A stretch of 64,000 nucleotides of DNA. It comes from Patescibacteria group bacterium (GTDB lineage: Bacteria > Patescibacteriota > Patescibacteriia > UBA9934). The notes below the pieces were generated by a model. That model did not search any database. It was not told the origin of the DNA and worked only from the letters and a program-made list of their open reading frames with translations. Position numbers and translations under genes: made by a program. Each line of letters begins with the position of its first letter. Position 1 is the first letter of the stretch. Location of the stretch: NCBI GenBank assembly GCA_041660165.1, contig JBAZWW010000001.1, forward strand, positions 105,035 to 169,034. The letters run 5' to 3'. Shown here in pieces: positions 4,990 through 14,631 of the stretch.

Positions 4990-6285
4990 ATGGCCAAGAT
5001 TGCCAAGATTCATGGGCGGGAAATTCTTGATTCGCGCGGGAATCCTACGGTTGAGGTTGATCTGTGGCTTGATAGCGGGCAGATGGTTAGGGCGAGTGTC
5101 CCCTCGGGCGCATCCACCGGTAAGCGCGAGGCGATTGAACTGCGCGATGGCGACAAGAAGCGCTATGCAGGCAAAGGCGTCTTAAACGCGGTGAATAACG
5201 TGAATACTGAACTGGCCAAACTGGTAGTCGGCCAGGATCCGGATGAACTTGAGAAGATCGATCAGATGATGATTGAGCTTGATGGCACTGAGAACAAAGG
5301 CCGGCTGGGGGCGAATGCAATTCTCGGCGTCTCCATCGCCGTCTTGAAGGCGGGCGCGGCTGCTGCGAATCTCCCCATCTACGAATACATCAAACGAAAG
5401 TATCGCCCAGAGACGCCGTACATCATGCCGGTGCCCATGTTCAACATTTTGAACGGTGGATTGCACGCCGAGGGCTCGTCCGATTTTCAGGAGTACAAGA
5501 TCGCTGCCATTGGTGCGCCGAGTTTGACGGAGGCTGTGCGCTGGAGTGCGGAGGTGTTCCACGTCCTTAAAAAGATTCTGCACGAGCGCGGTTTGACTAC
5601 AACGGTGGGGGATGAGGGGGGCTTTGCCCCGGCGCTCAGCTCGAACGACGAGTACCCACAGATCATTGTTGAAGCGATCAAGAAGGCGGGATACGAACCA
5701 GGTAAGGATATTTATCTGGCTCTCGATCCAGCGAGTAGTGCCTTCTATGACAATGGCAAGTACAATTTGAAGCGTGATGGTCGAGTACTAAACTCGGACG
5801 AAATGATTGCTTTCTGGGTTGATTGGGTGAACAAGTATCCGATTATCTCCATTGAGGATGGGCTAGGCGAGGATGACTGGGAGAACTGGAAGAAACTTTA
5901 CGAGACCCTGGGTCACAAGATCCAGATCATGGGTGATGATTTGCTCGTCACAAATCCCAAGATCATCAAGAAAGCAATAGCTGACAAGCTGGCTAACTCG
6001 GCCTTGATCAAGATCAACCAGATCGGTTCGATGTCTGAGACGATTGAAGCGGTGAACCTGGCCCACGCTGCGGGCTGGTCGGCCGTCGTGTCTCACCGAT
6101 CGGGGGAGACCGAAGACACAACTATCGCTGACCTGGTGGTCGGCCTTAGTACGGGCATGATCAAGACAGGCTCGGCCAGCCGGTCAGAACGCGTGGCCAA
6201 GTACAACCAGCTGATGCGCATTGAGGAAGAACTGGGGGAGAAGGCTGTGTACCCCGGCATGAAGGCGTTTGCGAATATTAAGTAG
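4990..6285 (+). CDS. eno: Enolase (phosphopyruvate hydratase)
   Basis: MAKIAKIHGREILDSRGNPTVEVD and SHRSGETEDTTIADL motifs identify it. The start is trimmed to the MAKI ATG. Confidence 0.95.
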   Translation: MAKIAKIHGREILDSRGNPTVEVDLWLDSGQMVRASVPSGASTGKREAIELRDGDKKRYAGKGVLNAVNNVNTELAKLVVGQDPDELEKIDQMMIELDGTENKGRLGANAILGVSIAVLKAGAAAANLPIYEYIKRKYRPETPYIMPVPMFNILNGGLHAEGSSDFQEYKIAAIGAPSLTEAVRWSAEVFHVLKKILHERGLTTTVGDEGGFAPALSSNDEYPQIIVEAIKKAGYEPGKDIYLALDPASSAFYDNGKYNLKRDGRVLNSDEMIAFWVDWVNKYPIISIEDGLGEDDWENWKKLYETLGHKIQIMGDDLLVTNPKIIKKAIADKLANSALIKINQIGSMSETIEAVNLAHAAGWSAVVSHRSGETEDTTIADLVVGLSTGMIKTGSASRSERVAKYNQLMRIEEELGEKAVYPGMKAFANIK

Positions 6286-6294
6286 GTCTTGTTC

Positions 6295-6425
6295 GTGTCA
6301 TCCCGACGTAAGGAGGGATCTGAATTGGCAATCTGGATAATGCATCGACCAATCAGATCTCTCGGCCGTCGGACGGCCTCGAGATGACAACAACGCTCAG
6401 GCTGACGCTGAGACTCGGGACGACA
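6295..6425. repeat. Dispersed nested-palindrome repeat, copy A (MITE/REP-like)
   Basis: GTCATCCCGACG...GGGATCTGAATTGG..CCAATCAGATCTCTCGGCCGTCGGACGGCCTCGAGATGAC, directly after the eno stop. Confidence 0.6.
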
Positions 6426-6441
6426 GCGAATAATACATAAG

Positions 6442-9270: not shown

Positions 9271-9924
9271 ATGTCTTCTATGATTCATGGTCTTCGAATA
9301 GTTTTTATAGCCTTGATCGGAACAGCCCTGGCAGGATTTCTTTTGCTGTTTTCGGTTATTATGATCGAGGGGAAACGGCATGATGTGAAGGCTGATCTTC
9401 AGGCCATTGCTCCGCAGAATGTAGCGATTGTTTTTGGCGCAGGAATCAAACGAGACAATACGCCATCTGATGCCTTAGAAGATAGGTTGATCGTAGCGGC
9501 GAGGCTCTATCATGCTGGTCAGGTCAAAACGATTCTTGTTTCCGGCGACAACCGATTTAAAAATTATTCCGAGCCGGACGTGATGCGGGATGCGCTTGTT
9601 GAGCGCATGGGCGTAGATGCAAAAGACATTCAGGCTGATTACGCCGGACGCCGGACGTATGACACTTGTATTCGAGCAAAAAAACTTTGGGGAGTTGATC
9701 ACGCCATTCTAATTTCACAAGATTTTCATCTTCCGCGAGCCATCTGGACCTGTGATAAATTAGGTATTGAAAGTTCCGGCGCTTCAGCCTCACTCCGTCC
9801 CTACATGTTTGCCGTGGATTATCGTGCTCGAGAAATTCTGGCCGATCTGAACGCCTTTATTAACGTCTATATTTGGCATCCTGGGTACGTGGGAGGGGAG
9901 TTTGTGACGGATATTGATCCGTAA
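9271..9924 (+). CDS. sanA: SanA/YdcF (DUF218) family envelope protein
   Basis: N-terminal TM segment, then IVFGAGI...LVSGDNRFKNYSEPDVMRD...ILISQDFHLPRA, characteristic of SanA/DUF218. Confidence 0.75.
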   Translation: MSSMIHGLRIVFIALIGTALAGFLLLFSVIMIEGKRHDVKADLQAIAPQNVAIVFGAGIKRDNTPSDALEDRLIVAARLYHAGQVKTILVSGDNRFKNYSEPDVMRDALVERMGVDAKDIQADYAGRRTYDTCIRAKKLWGVDHAILISQDFHLPRAIWTCDKLGIESSGASASLRPYMFAVDYRAREILADLNAFINVYIWHPGYVGGEFVTDIDP

Positions 9925-9983
9925 TTGAAACACCCCGCCGTTAGCGACCCATGGGGGCGTTTCATCGGCGGGATGACGGCGGG
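9925..9983 (+). repeat. Island boundary repeat, copy 1
   Basis: TTGAAACACCCCGCCGTTAGCGACCCATGGGGGCGTTTC starts directly at the sanA stop. It differs by 2 mismatches in 39 nt from the copy at 12768. Confidence 0.6.
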
Positions 9984-10011
9984 AGGCTTAGGCGCATGGC
10001 CCGAAGCCTCA

Positions 10012-10431
10012 CCAGAAGTGATTCCGTAAGGCATGGCAGGTAGCTGCCAAAAGCTGGCTAAGCTTTTTTCTGGCCCGTATATTTCTAAGCTCTGAGGGTT
10101 GCGCCGGTGAAGCAGGATATTCGGTGAGAACTTCCGGCACCGGGCGCGGAATGAAACGCACGACGCAGTCACGGATCAGCCCTTCCAGGCTGACTCCCAT
10201 GCGCTCCTGTCCGCGCTCCGACCAGGTGATGCGCACGCGGACGGGGGCGCCGTTTGAGCGTTCGTGCTTTGGCCTGTACTTGATGACGATGTCGTCCGGC
10301 TTGCAGGGGAACCCGGCGGTAGTACAGACCGCGCTCAGCTCTTTCTGCAGACGGGCTTGTTGATGGCCGGTCAGCACATCCATACTCCATTGCACGTCTC
10401 CCAAGCAGTTGAGGATTTCAACAGTGGGCAT
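10012..10431 (-). CDS. Hypothetical protein with 4-OT/tautomerase-like N-terminus
   Basis: Starts MPTVEILNCLGDV... (a Pro-1 pattern). A strong AGGGAGGG Shine-Dalgarno lies 5 nt upstream. The gene is GC-rich. The ORF-track extension to 10683 is probably spurious. Confidence 0.4.
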
Positions 10432-10490
10432 TGGACCCTCCCTGGCGTGTTGAGAAGCGATTACACGCGAACAAAATACGCCTCCCACGT

Positions 10491-10550
10491 AAAGCGTCAA
10501 GTACAAAACACCCCGCCTGCGCGCGATCCTCGGTCGAGGTGTTTCGCGGT
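10491..10550 (+). repeat. Island repeat, copy 1b
   Basis: GTACAAAACACCCCGCC...GGTGTTTCGCGGTAGCGGGGTG. Confidence 0.5.
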
Positions 10551-10583
10551 AGCGGGGTGCAGGTGATGGTTGTGGGATGGCGG

Positions 10584-10958
10584 CTACATCCCGAGACAGG
10601 CCTTTTCGATGACTCCATTTTTGACGATGAAGTCGGTTCCCGAGTTCGGATCGATGTAGACGATTCCAGCGTCCCTCGGCCAATCTGCATGAAGAGTGGC
10701 GTAGGTTACGGCGACGAGCACAAGATCGGTTCGAAGAGTAGCTAGCGGTTCGTCCGTCTTGATTGCTTCTACGACGCCGTATGCATGATCCGTTCCTTTG
10801 CGGGTGATACGCACGACTCGATGCAGATCGTATTCAACTATGACACCGCCCGCTGACCAGACGATGCTTTTGAGGAGTGGAACAGGCAGGTGGCGATGGC
10901 TACGACCACATGCATCAAGGTAGTAGTGGATACATTCTTGAACGAGTGTAAATTCCAT
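10584..10958 (-). CDS. Hypothetical protein, 124 aa, GC-rich
   Basis: Reasonable amino-acid composition. GGAG lies 5 nt upstream of the MEFTLVQE start, and a TATACT -10-like box is further upstream. Confidence 0.4.
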   Translation of the reverse strand: MEFTLVQECIHYYLDACGRSHRHLPVPLLKSIVWSAGGVIVEYDLHRVVRITRKGTDHAYGVVEAIKTDEPLATLRTDLVLVAVTYATLHADWPRDAGIVYIDPNSGTDFIVKNGVIEKACLGM

Positions 10959-11110
10959 GGGGTCTCCATATCGAACCATTCAGTATAGCAAAAAAATACG
11001 AATTTGTCAATAATTCCGCTAACATTAGATAGAAAAACTACCAAGAGCTCCTCAGCGAACGCTAGTCAAAGACCATTGAAAAACAAGTGCCGGTCTTTCA
11101 ATACGCATAA

Positions 11111-11182
11111 TGTACATTTTGTTCAAATTGAAACACCCCGCTCGTCAGCTGGCCCGGAGGGGTGTTTCGCTGTGGCGGGGCG
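11111..11182 (+). repeat. Island repeat, copy 2
   Basis: TGTACATTTTGTTCAAATTGAAACACCCCGC-loop-GGGGTGTTTCGCTGTGGCGGGGCG. Confidence 0.6.
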
Positions 11183-11207
11183 TACGTGGCAGATGCCAGT
11201 AGTCGAG

Positions 11208-11549
11208 CTACGCGCTCGTGGGCGCAGGGGCCTTGATGGCCAGGAGCTCTTCGACCGTTTTTTCGATGATCTGGTCGAGCAGTCCGCCGGGCGCGGTGAT
11301 CTGCTCCAGGGTGACCGGCTTCATTCGCTTGAGGTCGTCGTAGACGTCCTCCATGAGGTCGAGAGTTGCGCCGACCTTGAGCGGGATGTCGTTCACGGCG
11401 AGCACATTGATCGTTTCGATCTCGCGGACGATGCCCTGCATGGGCGTCTCGCCGTTCGCCGACACCTCGGCGCAGAAGCGCGTGATGCAGGAGCGGATGA
11501 AGGCCGTGATCATGGCAACTTCTTCGGGGATGAGACCTGACGGTGGCAT
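11208..11549 (-). CDS. Hypothetical protein B, 113 aa, paralogous to the adjacent gene
   Basis: A GGAG Shine-Dalgarno precedes the start. Its C-terminus ...LLDQIIEKTVEELLAIKAPAPTSA resembles ...VLDQLRSEITAIKIPEPANV of the upstream gene. Confidence 0.55.
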   Translation of the reverse strand: MPPSGLIPEEVAMITAFIRSCITRFCAEVSANGETPMQGIVREIETINVLAVNDIPLKVGATLDLMEDVYDDLKRMKPVTLEQITAPGGLLDQIIEKTVEELLAIKAPAPTSA

Positions 11550-11622
11550 GAAAACTCCAATAGGCGGATTGCCTGCCTATAAAGTAAGCATTTTTTTGCA
11601 CCCAGTCAACGGTAGACCCTGG

Positions 11623-11955
11623 CTAGACGTTGGCCGGCTCAGGAATCTTGATAGCCGTGATTTCCGACCGGAGCTGGTCGAGCACGGTGTTGATTGCGTC
11701 CCTGAACTCTTCGATCGTTTTCGGGGCCAGGACCGCCAGCTCCACGTAGCACTGCCGGTGGAACCCAAGGTAGCGTTCTTGGAGGGTGGTGGGCTTGTCG
11801 TCGAGTATCTGGTCAATCATCCGGATGACGGTCCAGATCTTGTCGACGGGTTGGCTCTTTTCCTTATCGATCGTTTGTCCCAGCCGAATCGCCGACGAAG
11901 CGAACGTGTCGAAGTGCCCGTCCAATTCCTTCAAAGTGACGTCAATCGGTTGCAT
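11623..11955 (-). CDS. Hypothetical protein A, 110 aa, paralogous to the downstream gene
   Basis: A strong GGAGG Shine-Dalgarno lies 4 nt upstream. The protein is non-repetitive and of balanced composition. Confidence 0.6.
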   Translation of the reverse strand: MQPIDVTLKELDGHFDTFASSAIRLGQTIDKEKSQPVDKIWTVIRMIDQILDDKPTTLQERYLGFHRQCYVELAVLAPKTIEEFRDAINTVLDQLRSEITAIKIPEPANV

Positions 11956-12039
11956 GAGACCTCCGTGAGCATGGCTCCTGGAAAGGGTAGGCGTTTGCTT
12001 CTACCGCGTCAACGGTGTTTGGTTATTGATTAAATATAT

Positions 12040-12095
12040 TACATAAGATGCTTATGTATTTTTTGAATGGGTAATTTGTACAAATTGTACAAATT
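12040..12095. promoter_or_regulatory. Promoter/operator region of higBA with two palindromes
   Basis: TACATAAG-atg-CTTATGTA (12040-12058) and AATTTGTACAAATTGTACAAATT (12073-12095) lie 55-110 bp upstream of higB. Confidence 0.4.
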
Positions 12096-12125
12096 GAAAC
12101 ACCCCGTCGATAGCAGCCATCATTC
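12073..12125 (+). repeat. Island repeat, copy 3 (left half only)
   Basis: AATTTGTACAAATTGTACAAATTGAAACACCCCGTCG... has no matching right arm. Confidence 0.4.
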
Positions 12126-12168
12126 GGCCATTGACACATAGTAACGCGTGGCGTTATCATTGGAACGT

Positions 12169-12453
12169 ATGATTCAATCGTTCGCCGATGCAGATACGAA
12201 GCATATTTTCCAACGGGATCTCATTAAGAGGTTTCCAACGTGGCTGCAGAAGATTGCGTTAAGAAAACTTCTGCATATTCACGCCGCTCACCGGCTTGAT
12301 GATCTGAAAGTCCCGCCGGGTAATCGTCTTGAGAAACTCAAAGGCAAGGACGGAGACAAGCACAGCATCCGAGTAAACGATCAATGGCGGTTGCGCTTCA
12401 AATGGAAAGATAGCGACGCCTATGAAGTTTGTTTAATCGATTACCACGACTAA
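12169..12453 (+). CDS. higB: HigB toxin (RelE/ParE superfamily)
   Basis: MIQSF....PPGNRLEKLKGKDGDKHSIRVNDQWRLRFKWKDSDAYEVCLIDYHD matches the HigB killer-protein consensus. The ORF-track GTG start at 12148 is trimmed to the ATG. Confidence 0.8.
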   Translation: MIQSFADADTKHIFQRDLIKRFPTWLQKIALRKLLHIHAAHRLDDLKVPPGNRLEKLKGKDGDKHSIRVNDQWRLRFKWKDSDAYEVCLIDYHD

Positions 12454-12454
12454 T

Positions 12455-12751
12455 ATGAAAAAACAAAAACCCATTCATCCTGGCGAAATCCTCCTTGAAG
12501 ATTTTCTTCTGGCGATGGAGATCACTCAGTATCGTTTGGCAAAGGATATTAGCGTGCCTGCTCGCCGAATCAACGAAATCGTTCACGGCAACCGCGCCAT
12601 TAGCCCGGACACCGCGCTTCGACTGGCAAAGTATTTTGGCACCAGTCCCGAATTCTGGATGAATCTCCAGGCTCATTATGATCTTGAGCTACTCAATGAG
12701 AGTTGGTCGAAAACCATCGAGAAACAGGTGCGAGTATTTCAACCGGCGTAA
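12455..12751 (+). CDS. higA: HigA antitoxin (XRE-type HTH)
   Basis: IHPGEILLEDFL...ITQYRLAKDISVPARRINEIVHGNRAISPDTALRLAKYFGTSPEFWMNLQ is the canonical HigA sequence. The gene begins 2 nt after the higB stop. Confidence 0.85.
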   Translation: MKKQKPIHPGEILLEDFLLAMEITQYRLAKDISVPARRINEIVHGNRAISPDTALRLAKYFGTSPEFWMNLQAHYDLELLNESWSKTIEKQVRVFQPA

Positions 12752-12767
12752 AGTACAATTTGTACAA

Positions 12768-12822
12768 AATGAAACACCCCGCCGTTAGCGACCCATGGGG
12801 GTGTTTCGCTGTGGCGGGGTGA
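12768..12822 (+). repeat. Island boundary repeat, copy 4
   Basis: ATGAAACACCCCGCCGTTAGCGACCCATGGGGGTGTTTCGCTGTGGCGGGGTG, preceded by AATTTGTACAAAA. Confidence 0.6.
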
Positions 12823-12854
12823 CGAAGGAGATACGTTTCGCGGACGTTGGAGCG

Positions 12855-13121
12855 TTATTCGTTATCAGTGAACTTTGGGCTTTCGACGCCGAGTTCAATG
12901 AGCGTCTGGTGTGCTTTTTTGTGCTCGTCATCGGTGTTGTACACCAGGCCGCCGCAGAGCCTGCAGTCGCTCCACATGACGCTCATATGGACGATGCCGT
13001 TATTCGAGCGTCTGCGAAGAGATATTGCGCCTTTGATCTTTTGCACCGCCGTTTCGATGCGCCTTTTTTCTAGAAATTTGTTGAACTTCTCTTCTGGAGT
13101 GACGGCTTTTTCTTCGCCCAT
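12855..13121 (-). CDS. Hypothetical 88-aa protein with an H..CxxC..HxxxH cluster
   Basis: GGAGG lies 4 nt upstream of ATGGGCGAAGAA. The upstream part of the ORF-track prediction is discarded. Confidence 0.55.
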   Translation of the reverse strand: MGEEKAVTPEEKFNKFLEKRRIETAVQKIKGAISLRRRSNNGIVHMSVMWSDCRLCGGLVYNTDDEHKKAHQTLIELGVESPKFTDNE

Positions 13122-13182
13122 GATGCCTCCTATAGTGAGGCTAGCACATTTCGGAGTCTTAGGGTATGATCCTGCCACTTTT

Positions 13183-14631
13183 ATGGACCATGGAGATGTC
13201 ATTATCAGATTTGAGGCCGTGTCCTTTGGATACGACGCGGAAAACATGCTTTTAGACGAGGCAGATTTTTCGGTGAGAGAGAACTCGAAAATGACCGTCA
13301 TGGGGCAGAACGGGGCGGGGAAGAGCACGATTTTTAAATTATTGACGGGCGCTTTGAAGCCGGATAGGGGCGAGATTCATATCAAGCAGGGGGCGAGTAT
13401 TGCCATCGCTACGCAGGTCATGCCGAGAGAGAAGCTCGAGCATACTGTCCGCGAGTTTTTTGCGAGTGCCTTCTCGGAAAAACACCACAACCTCGACAAA
13501 CTGATTACGGATGTACTCGTCGTAGTAAATCTCAAGGCACCACTCGATAAGAAGATCAAAGAATTTTCGGGGGGCCAGCAAGCTCGTCTTCTTCTCGCTT
13601 ATGCACTCATTCAAGAGCCGGACATTCTGCTTCTAGACGAGCCGACGAACAATCTTGACGCTGACGGCATTGCCGAGCTCACGGCTTTCTTGATCATGTA
13701 CGAAAAAACGGTGCTCGTTATTTCCCACGACGCGGATTTCTTGAACTCGTTCACGGACGGCGTGCTTCACCTTGACGTGTATACCGGCAAGGTTGATCGC
13801 TACGAGGGCAACTATGTAGACGTTGTCAAAGAGATCACGGCGCGGGTTGAGCGCGAGCAGATGAAGAACGCCAGACTATTAAAAGAAATCCAAGATAGAA
13901 AGGATAAGGTGAACTTCTTTGCGCACAAAGGAGGCAAGATGCGAAAACTCGCCAGCAAGCTCAAGGACCAGGTCGAGGAAGCCGAGGAAAACATGGTCGA
14001 GGTCAAGCGCGATGACAGAACCATCCGCGATTTTCAGATTCCGGCGCAGGCTTGGAATGACAACGTGTTGTCCATTACCTCAGTTAAGGTCATAAAGAAT
14101 CACGAGGCCGAGGAGAAGCCGGTTAAGATATATCTACGCAAGGGCCAGCGCCTGCTGATCACCGGACCAAACGGTATTGGCAAGAGCACGTTTTTACGAT
14201 CTCTCTCCGCCGGGGAAGCTGGTTCGAACATTGCTAAGGGTGTTGCCGTCGGCTATTATCGCCAGGATTTTTCCGGCCTCGACTTCAATAAGAGCGCCTA
14301 TGACTCGCTGGCTGAAATGATGCACCAGCCGGATAATGAAACGATCAGAAAAACGGGCGCCCATTTCCTCCTGAACGGCGACGCGCTCGCCACCAAAGTT
14401 GGCAGTCTATCTGAGGGACAGAAGGGTTTGCTCTGCTTCGCCCGGTTCGTACTCCAGAAGCCGGGCCTCCTAATTCTCGACGAGCCGACTAATCACATTA
14501 ACTTCCGCCACCTGCCAATTATTGCTAAGGCTATTGAGAATTATGAGGGGGCCATTGTGATGGTGAGCCACGCGCCGGACTTTGTGAGCCAGATTAAGTT
14601 TGGCCAAACGCTTGACCTTTCTGCTTTGTAG
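13183..14631 (+). CDS. ABC-F family ATPase (two ABC domains, no permease)
   Basis: Two Walker A sites (GQNGAGKST, GPNGIGKST), two signature motifs (FSGGQQARL, LSEGQKGLL) and an inter-domain linker. The start is trimmed to the MDHGD ATG. Confidence 0.85.
   Translation: MDHGDVIIRFEAVSFGYDAENMLLDEADFSVRENSKMTVMGQNGAGKSTIFKLLTGALKPDRGEIHIKQGASIAIATQVMPREKLEHTVREFFASAFSEKHHNLDKLITDVLVVVNLKAPLDKKIKEFSGGQQARLLLAYALIQEPDILLLDEPTNNLDADGIAELTAFLIMYEKTVLVISHDADFLNSFTDGVLHLDVYTGKVDRYEGNYVDVVKEITARVEREQMKNARLLKEIQDRKDKVNFFAHKGGKMRKLASKLKDQVEEAEENMVEVKRDDRTIRDFQIPAQAWNDNVLSITSVKVIKNHEAEEKPVKIYLRKGQRLLITGPNGIGKSTFLRSLSAGEAGSNIAKGVAVGYYRQDFSGLDFNKSAYDSLAEMMHQPDNETIRKTGAHFLLNGDALATKVGSLSEGQKGLLCFARFVLQKPGLLILDEPTNHINFRHLPIIAKAIENYEGAIVMVSHAPDFVSQIKFGQTLDLSAL

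Follow-up and report, generated by a model that had tools for sequence, protein, structure and literature searches.

A pair of small genes in the genome of a Patescibacteria group bacterium (assembly GCA_041660165.1) raises the question what two adjacent proteins of no recognized family do beside a toxin-antitoxin (TA) module. The genes lie in a stretch of 64,000 nt (contig JBAZWW010000001.1, positions 105,035 to 169,034; the whole stretch is here called the window), on its minus strand. According to the list of open reading frames (ORFs), gene A (11623..11955) encodes 110 amino acids (aa) and gene B (11208..11549) 113 aa; at NCBI, the products of A and B are named hypothetical proteins WC802_00600 and WC802_00595. 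An earlier sequence-only reading had described them as diverged paralogues forming one cassette of an island next to higBA, and had proposed a TA-like or defence-related pair. In this study, we searched for relatives of both proteins, analyzed the gene neighborhoods of these relatives, and compared the island with its counterpart in a related strain. A and B belong to a rare protein family whose members elsewhere are encoded together with an apparently SSS/SLC5-type membrane protein. We favor, with moderate confidence, the reading that they are orphan diverged paralogues of a STAC-like accessory family which in other organisms serves a remote SSS-type module on mobile elements, with a hairpin-delimited island harboring the two genes here.

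The protein family of A and B

Both ORFs were confirmed at these coordinates, each with its own Shine-Dalgarno (SD) sequence on the minus strand as read from the DNA: GGAGG at 11960..11964, 4 nt ahead of the ATG of A, and GGAG at 11555..11558, 5 nt ahead of the ATG of B. The intergenic spacer comprises 73 nt. NCBI annotates B with 101 aa from Met12, i.e. 12 codons late (region 11514-11549). Since the MPPSGL encoded from the upstream ATG at 11549 aligns with the N-terminal MPPSGY of the family described below, this ATG is to be regarded as the true start, giving 113 aa, and the NCBI call as too short. A and B are acidic proteins, and hydrophobic segments are absent from both.

A word-indexed search of 5.8 billion proteins returned one homologue of A and, for B, only its own annotated entry. 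HMMER with a profile of A, P0002 and B found 14 proteins at E <= 1e-3 in 1.84 billion representatives: three from this lineage, two artefacts, and nine genuine family members. With nine genuine representatives per 1.84 billion, the family is rare. Seven of the nine are full-length proteins of 107-124 aa, all beginning with MPPSGY, and the other two matches comprise the C-terminal 110 residues of 303- and 306-aa proteins with hydrophobic N-terminal halves. The name MPPSGY family was coined in this analysis from the N-terminal motif and is uncurated. By tblastn, A was matched by the fused relative P0011 (E = 6e-6) and B by P0006 (E = 5e-8). A kinship with acyl carrier proteins (ACPs) came into view through P0007, a polyketide synthase with six ACP domains, and was rejected: single repeats score no more than 5-7 bits, the total being their sum over the tandem array, and an independent hidden Markov model (HMM) of the family gives no match. 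The same applies to P0009, whose score sums weak matches to 14 tandem repeats and which the independent HMM does not match either.

Conserved features of the family are the N-terminal MPPSGY, F-x-x-S-C, E-I-x-x-I, an invariant Pro, L-T-R-x-F-Y with an invariant Tyr, and a C-terminal E-I-x-x-I-(H/K)-(V/I)-P. B is a member of the canonical type with MPPSGL and FIRSC. A is divergent, and its motifs are degenerate (MQPIDV and FASSA), so that only Pro3 and the Ser are retained and the S-C is lost. Searches with A, B and family members against Pfam, NCBIfam, PADLOC and PHROGs gave no match, as was anticipated by the statement that no known family could be recognized. The family profile, P0014 and P0015 found no family match among all PDB sequences, and the literature searched for the MPPSGY motif held no paper with it. 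The family matches nothing curated and is new in that narrow sense.

The similarity blocks that the sequence-only reading had quoted are real. BLASTP of A against B aligns the C-terminal 51 residues only (31% identity, E = 0.005), and MAFFT gives a collinear alignment over the full length with 22-23% identity. The global alignment score has z = 6.5 and was reached by none of 2000 shuffles; the local score has z = 4.5 and was reached by two of 2000. The independent family HMM was built from nine relatives from other organisms, all outside the candidate phyla radiation (CPR), and contains zero sequences of this lineage. Applied to 591 ORFs, it matched B with E = 7.4e-17 (profile positions 1-106) and A with E = 3.3e-13 (positions 21-107), and the next best ORF of the window reached only E = 1.7. 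Because a model without sequences of this lineage matches both, A and B share a common ancestry and are, as judged from these alignments, real diverged paralogues.

Two DNA blocks are common to the A and B units at one offset of 403 nt (direct repeats D6 and D12). The first (D6) is a leader block of 30 nt, located on the minus strand at 11987..12016 upstream of A (ACCGTTGACGCGGTAGAAGCAAACGCCTAC) and at 11584..11613 upstream of B, i.e. within the A-B spacer; the two copies are 73% identical, each with a TTGAC(G/T) hexamer. The second, 3′ block spans the LDQ(L/I) codons. Since leader and 3′ blocks are shared at the same offset, a tandem duplication of a unit of ~403 nt including the leader is a plausible origin of A and B. 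A leader score as high as the observed one occurred in 29 of 5000 shuffles and in 38 of 5000 random genomic segments. A function of the leader block of A as promoter is not established: the -35-like TTGACG lies inside it, the -10 region is poor, and the block is absent from the promoter-scan listing.

The structure prediction proposed as a check gave four helices in both proteins, at a confidence too low to fix their packing. AlphaFold2 models from a shallow alignment of three sequences place helices at residues 8-32, 36-51, 58-76 and 81-101 of A (predicted local distance difference test, pLDDT, 62) and at 8-32, 36-54, 59-75 and 90-106 of B, with a further short helix at 81-85 (pLDDT 59). Foldseek searches of PDB and viral structures with these models returned only generic helical bundles (E >= 0.3). 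According to the models, the family would consist of soluble, acidic, all-helical proteins of ~108 aa with four predicted helices.

An R-x4-H-x3-Y stretch in A had been likened, with reservation, to the Rx4-6H motif of HEPN RNases. The single R-x4-H spacing in A is the only likeness, and it does not hold in the family alignment, where the stretch falls on the family motif L-x-L-T-R-x-F-Y. There H66 aligns with Thr in most members or with Met in B, R61 is not conserved in 10 of the 12 aligned sequences, and Y70 alone is invariant. In contrast to HEPN proteins, the motif is thus conserved neither in B nor in other members, and no HEPN model matched.

The gene module of the relatives and its comparison with STAC

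All six informative foreign contigs have the same gene order, an SSS-like protein followed by a transmembrane (TM) protein and the MPPSGY protein, and the foreign family members on the contigs examined are all single-copy. The first protein has 545-601 aa with 12-16 hydrophobic segments and the second 168-269 aa with 2-6 segments. Separate genes for all three parts occur in L124 (7522-10803; 551, 269 and 109 aa, plus an extra 153-aa gene), L129 (1267-4278; 601, 232 and 112 aa), L130 (356-3146; 574, 230 and 109 aa) and L133 (424-2948; 545, 168 and 119 aa). In L127 (1854-4493; 568 and 306 aa) and L128 (5188-7881; 588 and 303 aa), parts 2 and 3 are fused, with MPPSGY as the C-terminal, cytoplasmic domain.

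The six large partner proteins are mutually homologous (pairwise E 1e-30 to 1e-93). HMMER searches with them against the Pfam and NCBIfam HMMs gave no family match. With hhalign, the partner profile aligned to E. coli PutP, PanF and ActP over 432 columns (probability 97.2%, E = 3.9e-11), including the DYF..R.L and GG..A...TD..Q signatures. By this profile comparison, the large partner is an SSS/SLC5-type membrane protein, the kinship being remote because the Pfam and NCBIfam HMMs alone do not find it.

Three contigs extend far enough for the wider context to be judged, and in each of them the module is surrounded by recombinase or replication genes. The L124 module is flanked by two tyrosine integrases and adjoins a Prim-Pol gene, the L127 module is located between two large serine recombinases and next to a gene matching PADLOC PDC-S06 (AAA_13), and the L128 module is near a Replic_Relax gene. 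Judged by these neighbors, the canonical modules are cargo of mobile elements. By tblastn, the SSS-like partner had no match in plasmid and phage collections, and a scan of viral contigs for it also returned nothing. Among 590 ORFs of the window, neither tblastn nor HMM searches found an SSS-like or partner ORF; A and B are orphans within these 64 kb.

The closest known analogue is STAC (Af1502, PDB 5A1Q; STAC of CbrA and CrbS). STAC is a four-helix bundle which occurs stand-alone or fused and is almost always genetically linked to SLC5 (PMC4834066, PMC7918813). In the cryo-electron microscopy structure of CbrA (2026), it is docked in a pocket beneath the transporter, and CbrX, a small two-helix peptide encoded beside CbrA, is bound in the membrane (PMC13022988). 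Like STAC, the MPPSGY protein is small and soluble, has four predicted helices, is stand-alone or fused to a neighboring polypeptide, and is genetically coupled to an SSS/SLC5-type membrane protein, the latter for the relatives elsewhere and not for A and B. The three-part logic of CbrA transporter, CbrX and STAC also matches the order of SSS-like, TM and MPPSGY protein.

There are also differences. PDB entry 5A1Q was not recovered by the family profile or by single members, even at E <= 10, and the STAC motif LGPx(x)A between helices 1 and 2 (PMC4834066) is echoed only by a loose L-x-P-x-x-A/G in some members. Therefore, the family is said here to work like STAC, not to be STAC. MPPSGY proteins are also longer (about 108 aa), have motifs of their own (MPPSGY, F-x-x-S-C, the invariant Tyr and E-I-x-x-I-H/K-V-P) and carry no attached two-component signalling domains; when fused, the MPPSGY domain joins the second TM protein rather than the transporter, and the window with A and B holds no transporter. 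Further small proteins are encoded beside SSS-type genes with presumed or shown binding: YjcH/DUF485 (ActP), YhdT/DUF997 (PanF) and CbrX (CbrA). In E. coli, panF and actP each adjoin such a small membrane-protein gene, yhdT and yjcH, respectively. These are tiny membrane proteins whose genes lie upstream of the transporter gene, whereas A, B and their relatives lack a hydrophobic segment and the relatives are encoded last in the module.

Because of the gene order, the fusions and the precedents of STAC, CbrX, YjcH and YhdT, we infer that the MPPSGY family may serve as cytoplasmic accessory or coupling subunit of an SSS-like partner complex. The protein would dock on the inner face of this complex and modulate or relay transport, and it would be neither an enzyme nor a toxin. 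A bolder version makes the three genes an undescribed mobile membrane system, which could sense in the manner of a transceptor or serve for exclusion or defence, and in which the MPPSGY protein performs the cytoplasmic coupling and is convergent with STAC or very distantly related to it. The copies in Patescibacteria would then be free-standing, diversifying derivatives acting in trans, which either neutralize incoming modules or plug into a transporter that belongs to the epibiont or to its host. We consider this version unlikely.

The island, its hairpins and the sister strain

The small island that holds A and B (9921-13130) is bordered by a DUF218 and an ABC-F gene. Its flanks are ordinary chromosomal genes, namely enolase, PIF1 helicase, DUF6629 and DUF218 on one side, and ABC-F, a protein without Pfam match and TspO on the other; no integrase was found among them. 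The minus-strand units of the island each end in one hairpin element of ~62 nt, of which a covariance model (R1) found four full copies and one half in the 64 kb, in the island only and on the gene strand only. The copy closing the A-B unit (11124..11187; R1 69.5 bits, E = 4e-21; -25.5 kcal/mol) has a CCCCGC/GCGGGG basal stem followed by TTTCAATTTG. At the upstream border of the unit, only the 3′ half is present (12090..12106, GGGGTGTTTCAATTTG, an exact 16-mer match), which abuts the inverted higBA and scores 12.2 bits because the left arm is missing. As A and B occupy one inter-repeat interval, calling them one cassette of the island next to higBA is fair for this genome.

The same ABC-F flank is present in L001 (ENA) and L121 (JGI), two independent assemblies of one strain and the only other lineage found with A and B. 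There, a 175-nt piece of higA (L001 5724-5898) meets B head-on, thereby fusing a higA 3′ fragment to the C-terminal half of B in a chimeric 93-aa ORF (P0004), and a hairpin follows. Next come a 79-aa CxxC gene, 13 nt, an intact A, a hairpin, and the upstream region of a 137-aa gene. At the same chromosomal site, the order of island units thus differs between the window and L001. A is of full length and keeps its SD sequence in both lineages. The A-B pairing is therefore not obligate: A persists without B beside another gene and B decays, and since B is truncated in the sister strain it is dispensable. The gene for the CxxC protein is upstream of A in both strains, immediately adjacent in L001 and separated from A in the window (12855..13130, minus strand, 91 aa) by a hairpin and higBA. 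The two versions of 91 and 79 aa (L001 6200-6439) are 59% identical (E = 1e-33, to 6200-6436), the protein has no family match, and a functional link to A is possible.

This comparison also bears on the proposal that A and B form a TA-like or defence pair of a new type, in which one protein is toxic, possibly through a HEPN-like R-x4-H, and the other neutralizes it. Small adjacent same-strand genes with an SD sequence each, situated beside higBA, fit this proposal, as do relatives that travel as mobile-element cargo, one module (L127) having a PADLOC PDC-S06 gene as its neighbor; with type II systems such as higBA, A and B have in common that they are two small genes side by side in a variable island. 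However, type II partners have different folds and are strictly paired, whereas A and B are one family with one predicted helix layout. The co-occurrence asked for as a check does not hold, with A intact beside another gene and B truncated in L001 and L121, and with all other members single-copy. The 73-nt spacer with its duplicated leader is not the usual tight coupling, toxin, antitoxin and defence models of Pfam, NCBIfam and PADLOC give no match, and the R-x4-H is unconserved even in B. A TA or defence pair is the least probable of the explanations weighed here. A defence-related role in a wider sense is conceivable, with relatives on mobile elements and once next to a PADLOC candidate gene, but it received no direct support from the results.

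The remaining full hairpin copies, likewise on the minus strand, follow the gene of the 91-aa CxxC protein (12765..12826; R1 86.9 bits; -28.7 kcal/mol, z = -4.5) and a 131-aa gene (10499..10564; 65.2 bits; -32.8 kcal/mol) or mark the distal border of the island (9921..9980; 64.9 bits), where the element overlaps the DUF218 stop codon. Six copies inspected each form one long hairpin with CACCCCGCC/GGCGGGGTG at the base (-24 to -36 kcal/mol), with a GC-rich basal stem of 9-10 bp followed by a T-rich tail (TTTCATTTTG, TTTCAATTTG or TTTTGTACTT). With GC-rich stem and T-rich tract, the shared hairpin has the features of an intrinsic terminator and appears terminator-like; a simple terminator scanner misses it because the loop exceeds 8 nt. 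Rfam gave no match on the island at E <= 1, and a scan of viral contigs for the repeat returned nothing. In a genome collection, the pattern GCGAAACACCCC N8-30 GGGGTGTTT gave at least 119 single matches in unrelated phyla, which are generic terminator-like hairpins. A stricter pattern found only L121, the same strain as L001, in metagenomes.

Strain-variable units that each end in such a hairpin invite comparison with integron cassettes. The hairpin would be a divergent attC, the island would resemble a cluster of attC sites lacking an integron integrase (CALIN), and A and B would have been moved by an integrase encoded elsewhere. Chromosomal integrons have arrays that include TA modules. The island agrees with this in its promoter-poor units, in an imperfect hairpin of ~50-60 nt with conserved ends and variable center after each unit on the gene strand, in units that are reassorted at one chromosomal site in two related strains, and in a TA module within the array. 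However, the core sites RYYYAAC and GTTRRRY are absent from the six copies, where the stem reads CACCCCGCC/GGCGGGGTG and GTT is followed by TCAA, TCAT or TTGT. The minimum free energy stem shows no obvious pattern of extrahelical bases, the T-rich tail behind it resembles that of an intrinsic terminator, and the covariation of the six copies is not significant, being indistinguishable from shuffles. Also, the genes flanking the island include no integrase, A switches its partner without a repeat at the junction (the 13 nt between the 79-aa gene and A in L001), and several breakpoints fall inside genes. An integron origin is very unlikely on this evidence.

The higBA module (12148..12751) is inverted relative to the other island units. 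On the plus strand, it consists of higB (12148 or 12169 to 12453; Pfam HigB-like_toxin, E = 3.5e-18) and higA (12455-12751; Pfam HTH_3, E = 6.5e-9). A promoter-like TTGACA-18-TATCAT precedes higB at 12131-12160 and overlaps the palindrome TAACGC-GTG-GCGTTA (12131-12165), a plausible HigA operator. A palindromic repeat of 16 nt with perfect complementarity, GTACAA(A/T)TTGTAC (12075-12090 and 12753-12768), flanks the module on both sides; with the hairpin 3′ half in addition, this looks like a target-duplicating insertion or a site-specific junction. A remnant of the higA 3′ end (11045..11110, plus strand, 66 nt) lies just beyond the hairpin after B and was recognized by the 97-nt direct repeat D2, 76% identical to 12686-12782. 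A dif/Xer (pdif-module) arrangement was considered since ACGCATAATGTACATTTTGTTCAAAT at 11100-11128 resembles the E. coli dif sequence; the corresponding positions in the other copies do not, and the idea was dropped, the stretch being the tail of the higA remnant. The mechanical 224-aa ORF with TTG start (10009-10683, minus strand) contains the hairpin copy at 10499-10564. The real gene within it is probably a 137-aa ORF from the ATG at 10422 (MPTVEI...) with GGAGGG ahead. Neither this ORF nor the 131-aa ORF (10584-10979) has a family match.

Selection and the fate of A and B

Comparison of A with its 80%-identical homologue P0002 gave a nonsynonymous divergence (dN) of 0.106, a synonymous divergence (dS) of 0.53 and dN/dS = 0.20. 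For the C-terminal half of B against the related strain, dN/dS is 0.36. By these ratios, A and B are genuine coding sequences. The flanking ABC-F gene (13183-14631) has dS = 1.16 against L001 with a ratio of 0.017. The dS of A is about half of this value, and this suggests that the exchange of island genes is younger than the divergence of the flanks. Since A is under purifying selection, it probably still binds something.

The selection on A counts against the view that A and B are decaying, functionless leftovers of a lost three-gene module in a recombination-prone island, as do its full length and SD sequence in both lineages. For B, its full length in the window and the retained N-terminal motif and SD sequence point in the same direction. 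Decay would agree with the absence of partner genes from the 64-kb window, with an A devoid of the MPPSGY and S-C motifs, with a truncated and chimeric B in the sister strain, and with the other debris of the island, i.e. the higA remnants. Overall, we regard this view as rather unlikely.

Selection on A in the absence of a nearby partner could also be read in another way. The orphans might be free-standing neutralizers or decoys, in the style of immunity proteins, directed against the SSS-like module of a mobile element, a phage or the host of the epibiont, with tandem diversification broadening their specificity. The copies are indeed orphaned, tandemly diversified and placed in a strain-variable island, the low dS of A relative to ABC-F suggests more recent exchange of cassette genes, and canonical modules travel as mobile-element cargo. 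However, there is no evidence of harm from the canonical module, the cognate module was seen in no Patescibacteria contig, P0006 and P0011, in which the domain is fused to the TM protein, speak for a structural subunit and not for an antagonist, and B decays in the sister strain. Such a role is quite unlikely.

Under the accessory-subunit reading, the orphans A and B most likely arose by tandem duplication of the ~403-nt unit including its leader, and they are parked as one inter-repeat unit of the strain-variable, hairpin-delimited island. In this reading they are independent cargo genes and not a TA couple, and A might act on a new target or on a membrane partner whose gene lies in another part of the genome. 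Several points weigh against this reading. The identity of A to B is 20% and to outside members 20-28%, and B is nearer to outside members (up to 31% identity); A and B may thus have been acquired independently, as duplication in situ rests on a weak leader similarity. In only one other lineage were A and B found. The term four-helix bundle is a statement at the level of predicted secondary structure, because the models have pLDDT values of 59-62 and derive from a three-sequence alignment. The docking mechanism draws on gene order, fusion and analogy, with no match to STAC or a solved structure, and it may not hold for the orphans, which have no SSS-like partner in the window.

Possibly, the MPPSGY protein will prove to be no more than an ordinary accessory protein, without a new mechanism, and its two copies here may be in the process of being lost. 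Even so, two orphan hypothetical proteins are now tied to a conserved three-gene mobile module with a remote SSS/SLC5-type protein, and the island provides a concrete locus for gene turnover in the reduced genomes of Patescibacteria. Should the family indeed be a docking subunit of the STAC type, it would add a second, independent case of a small helical module that is cytoplasmic and coupled to SLC5 transporters, a theme whose structural understanding is only just emerging, via CbrA.

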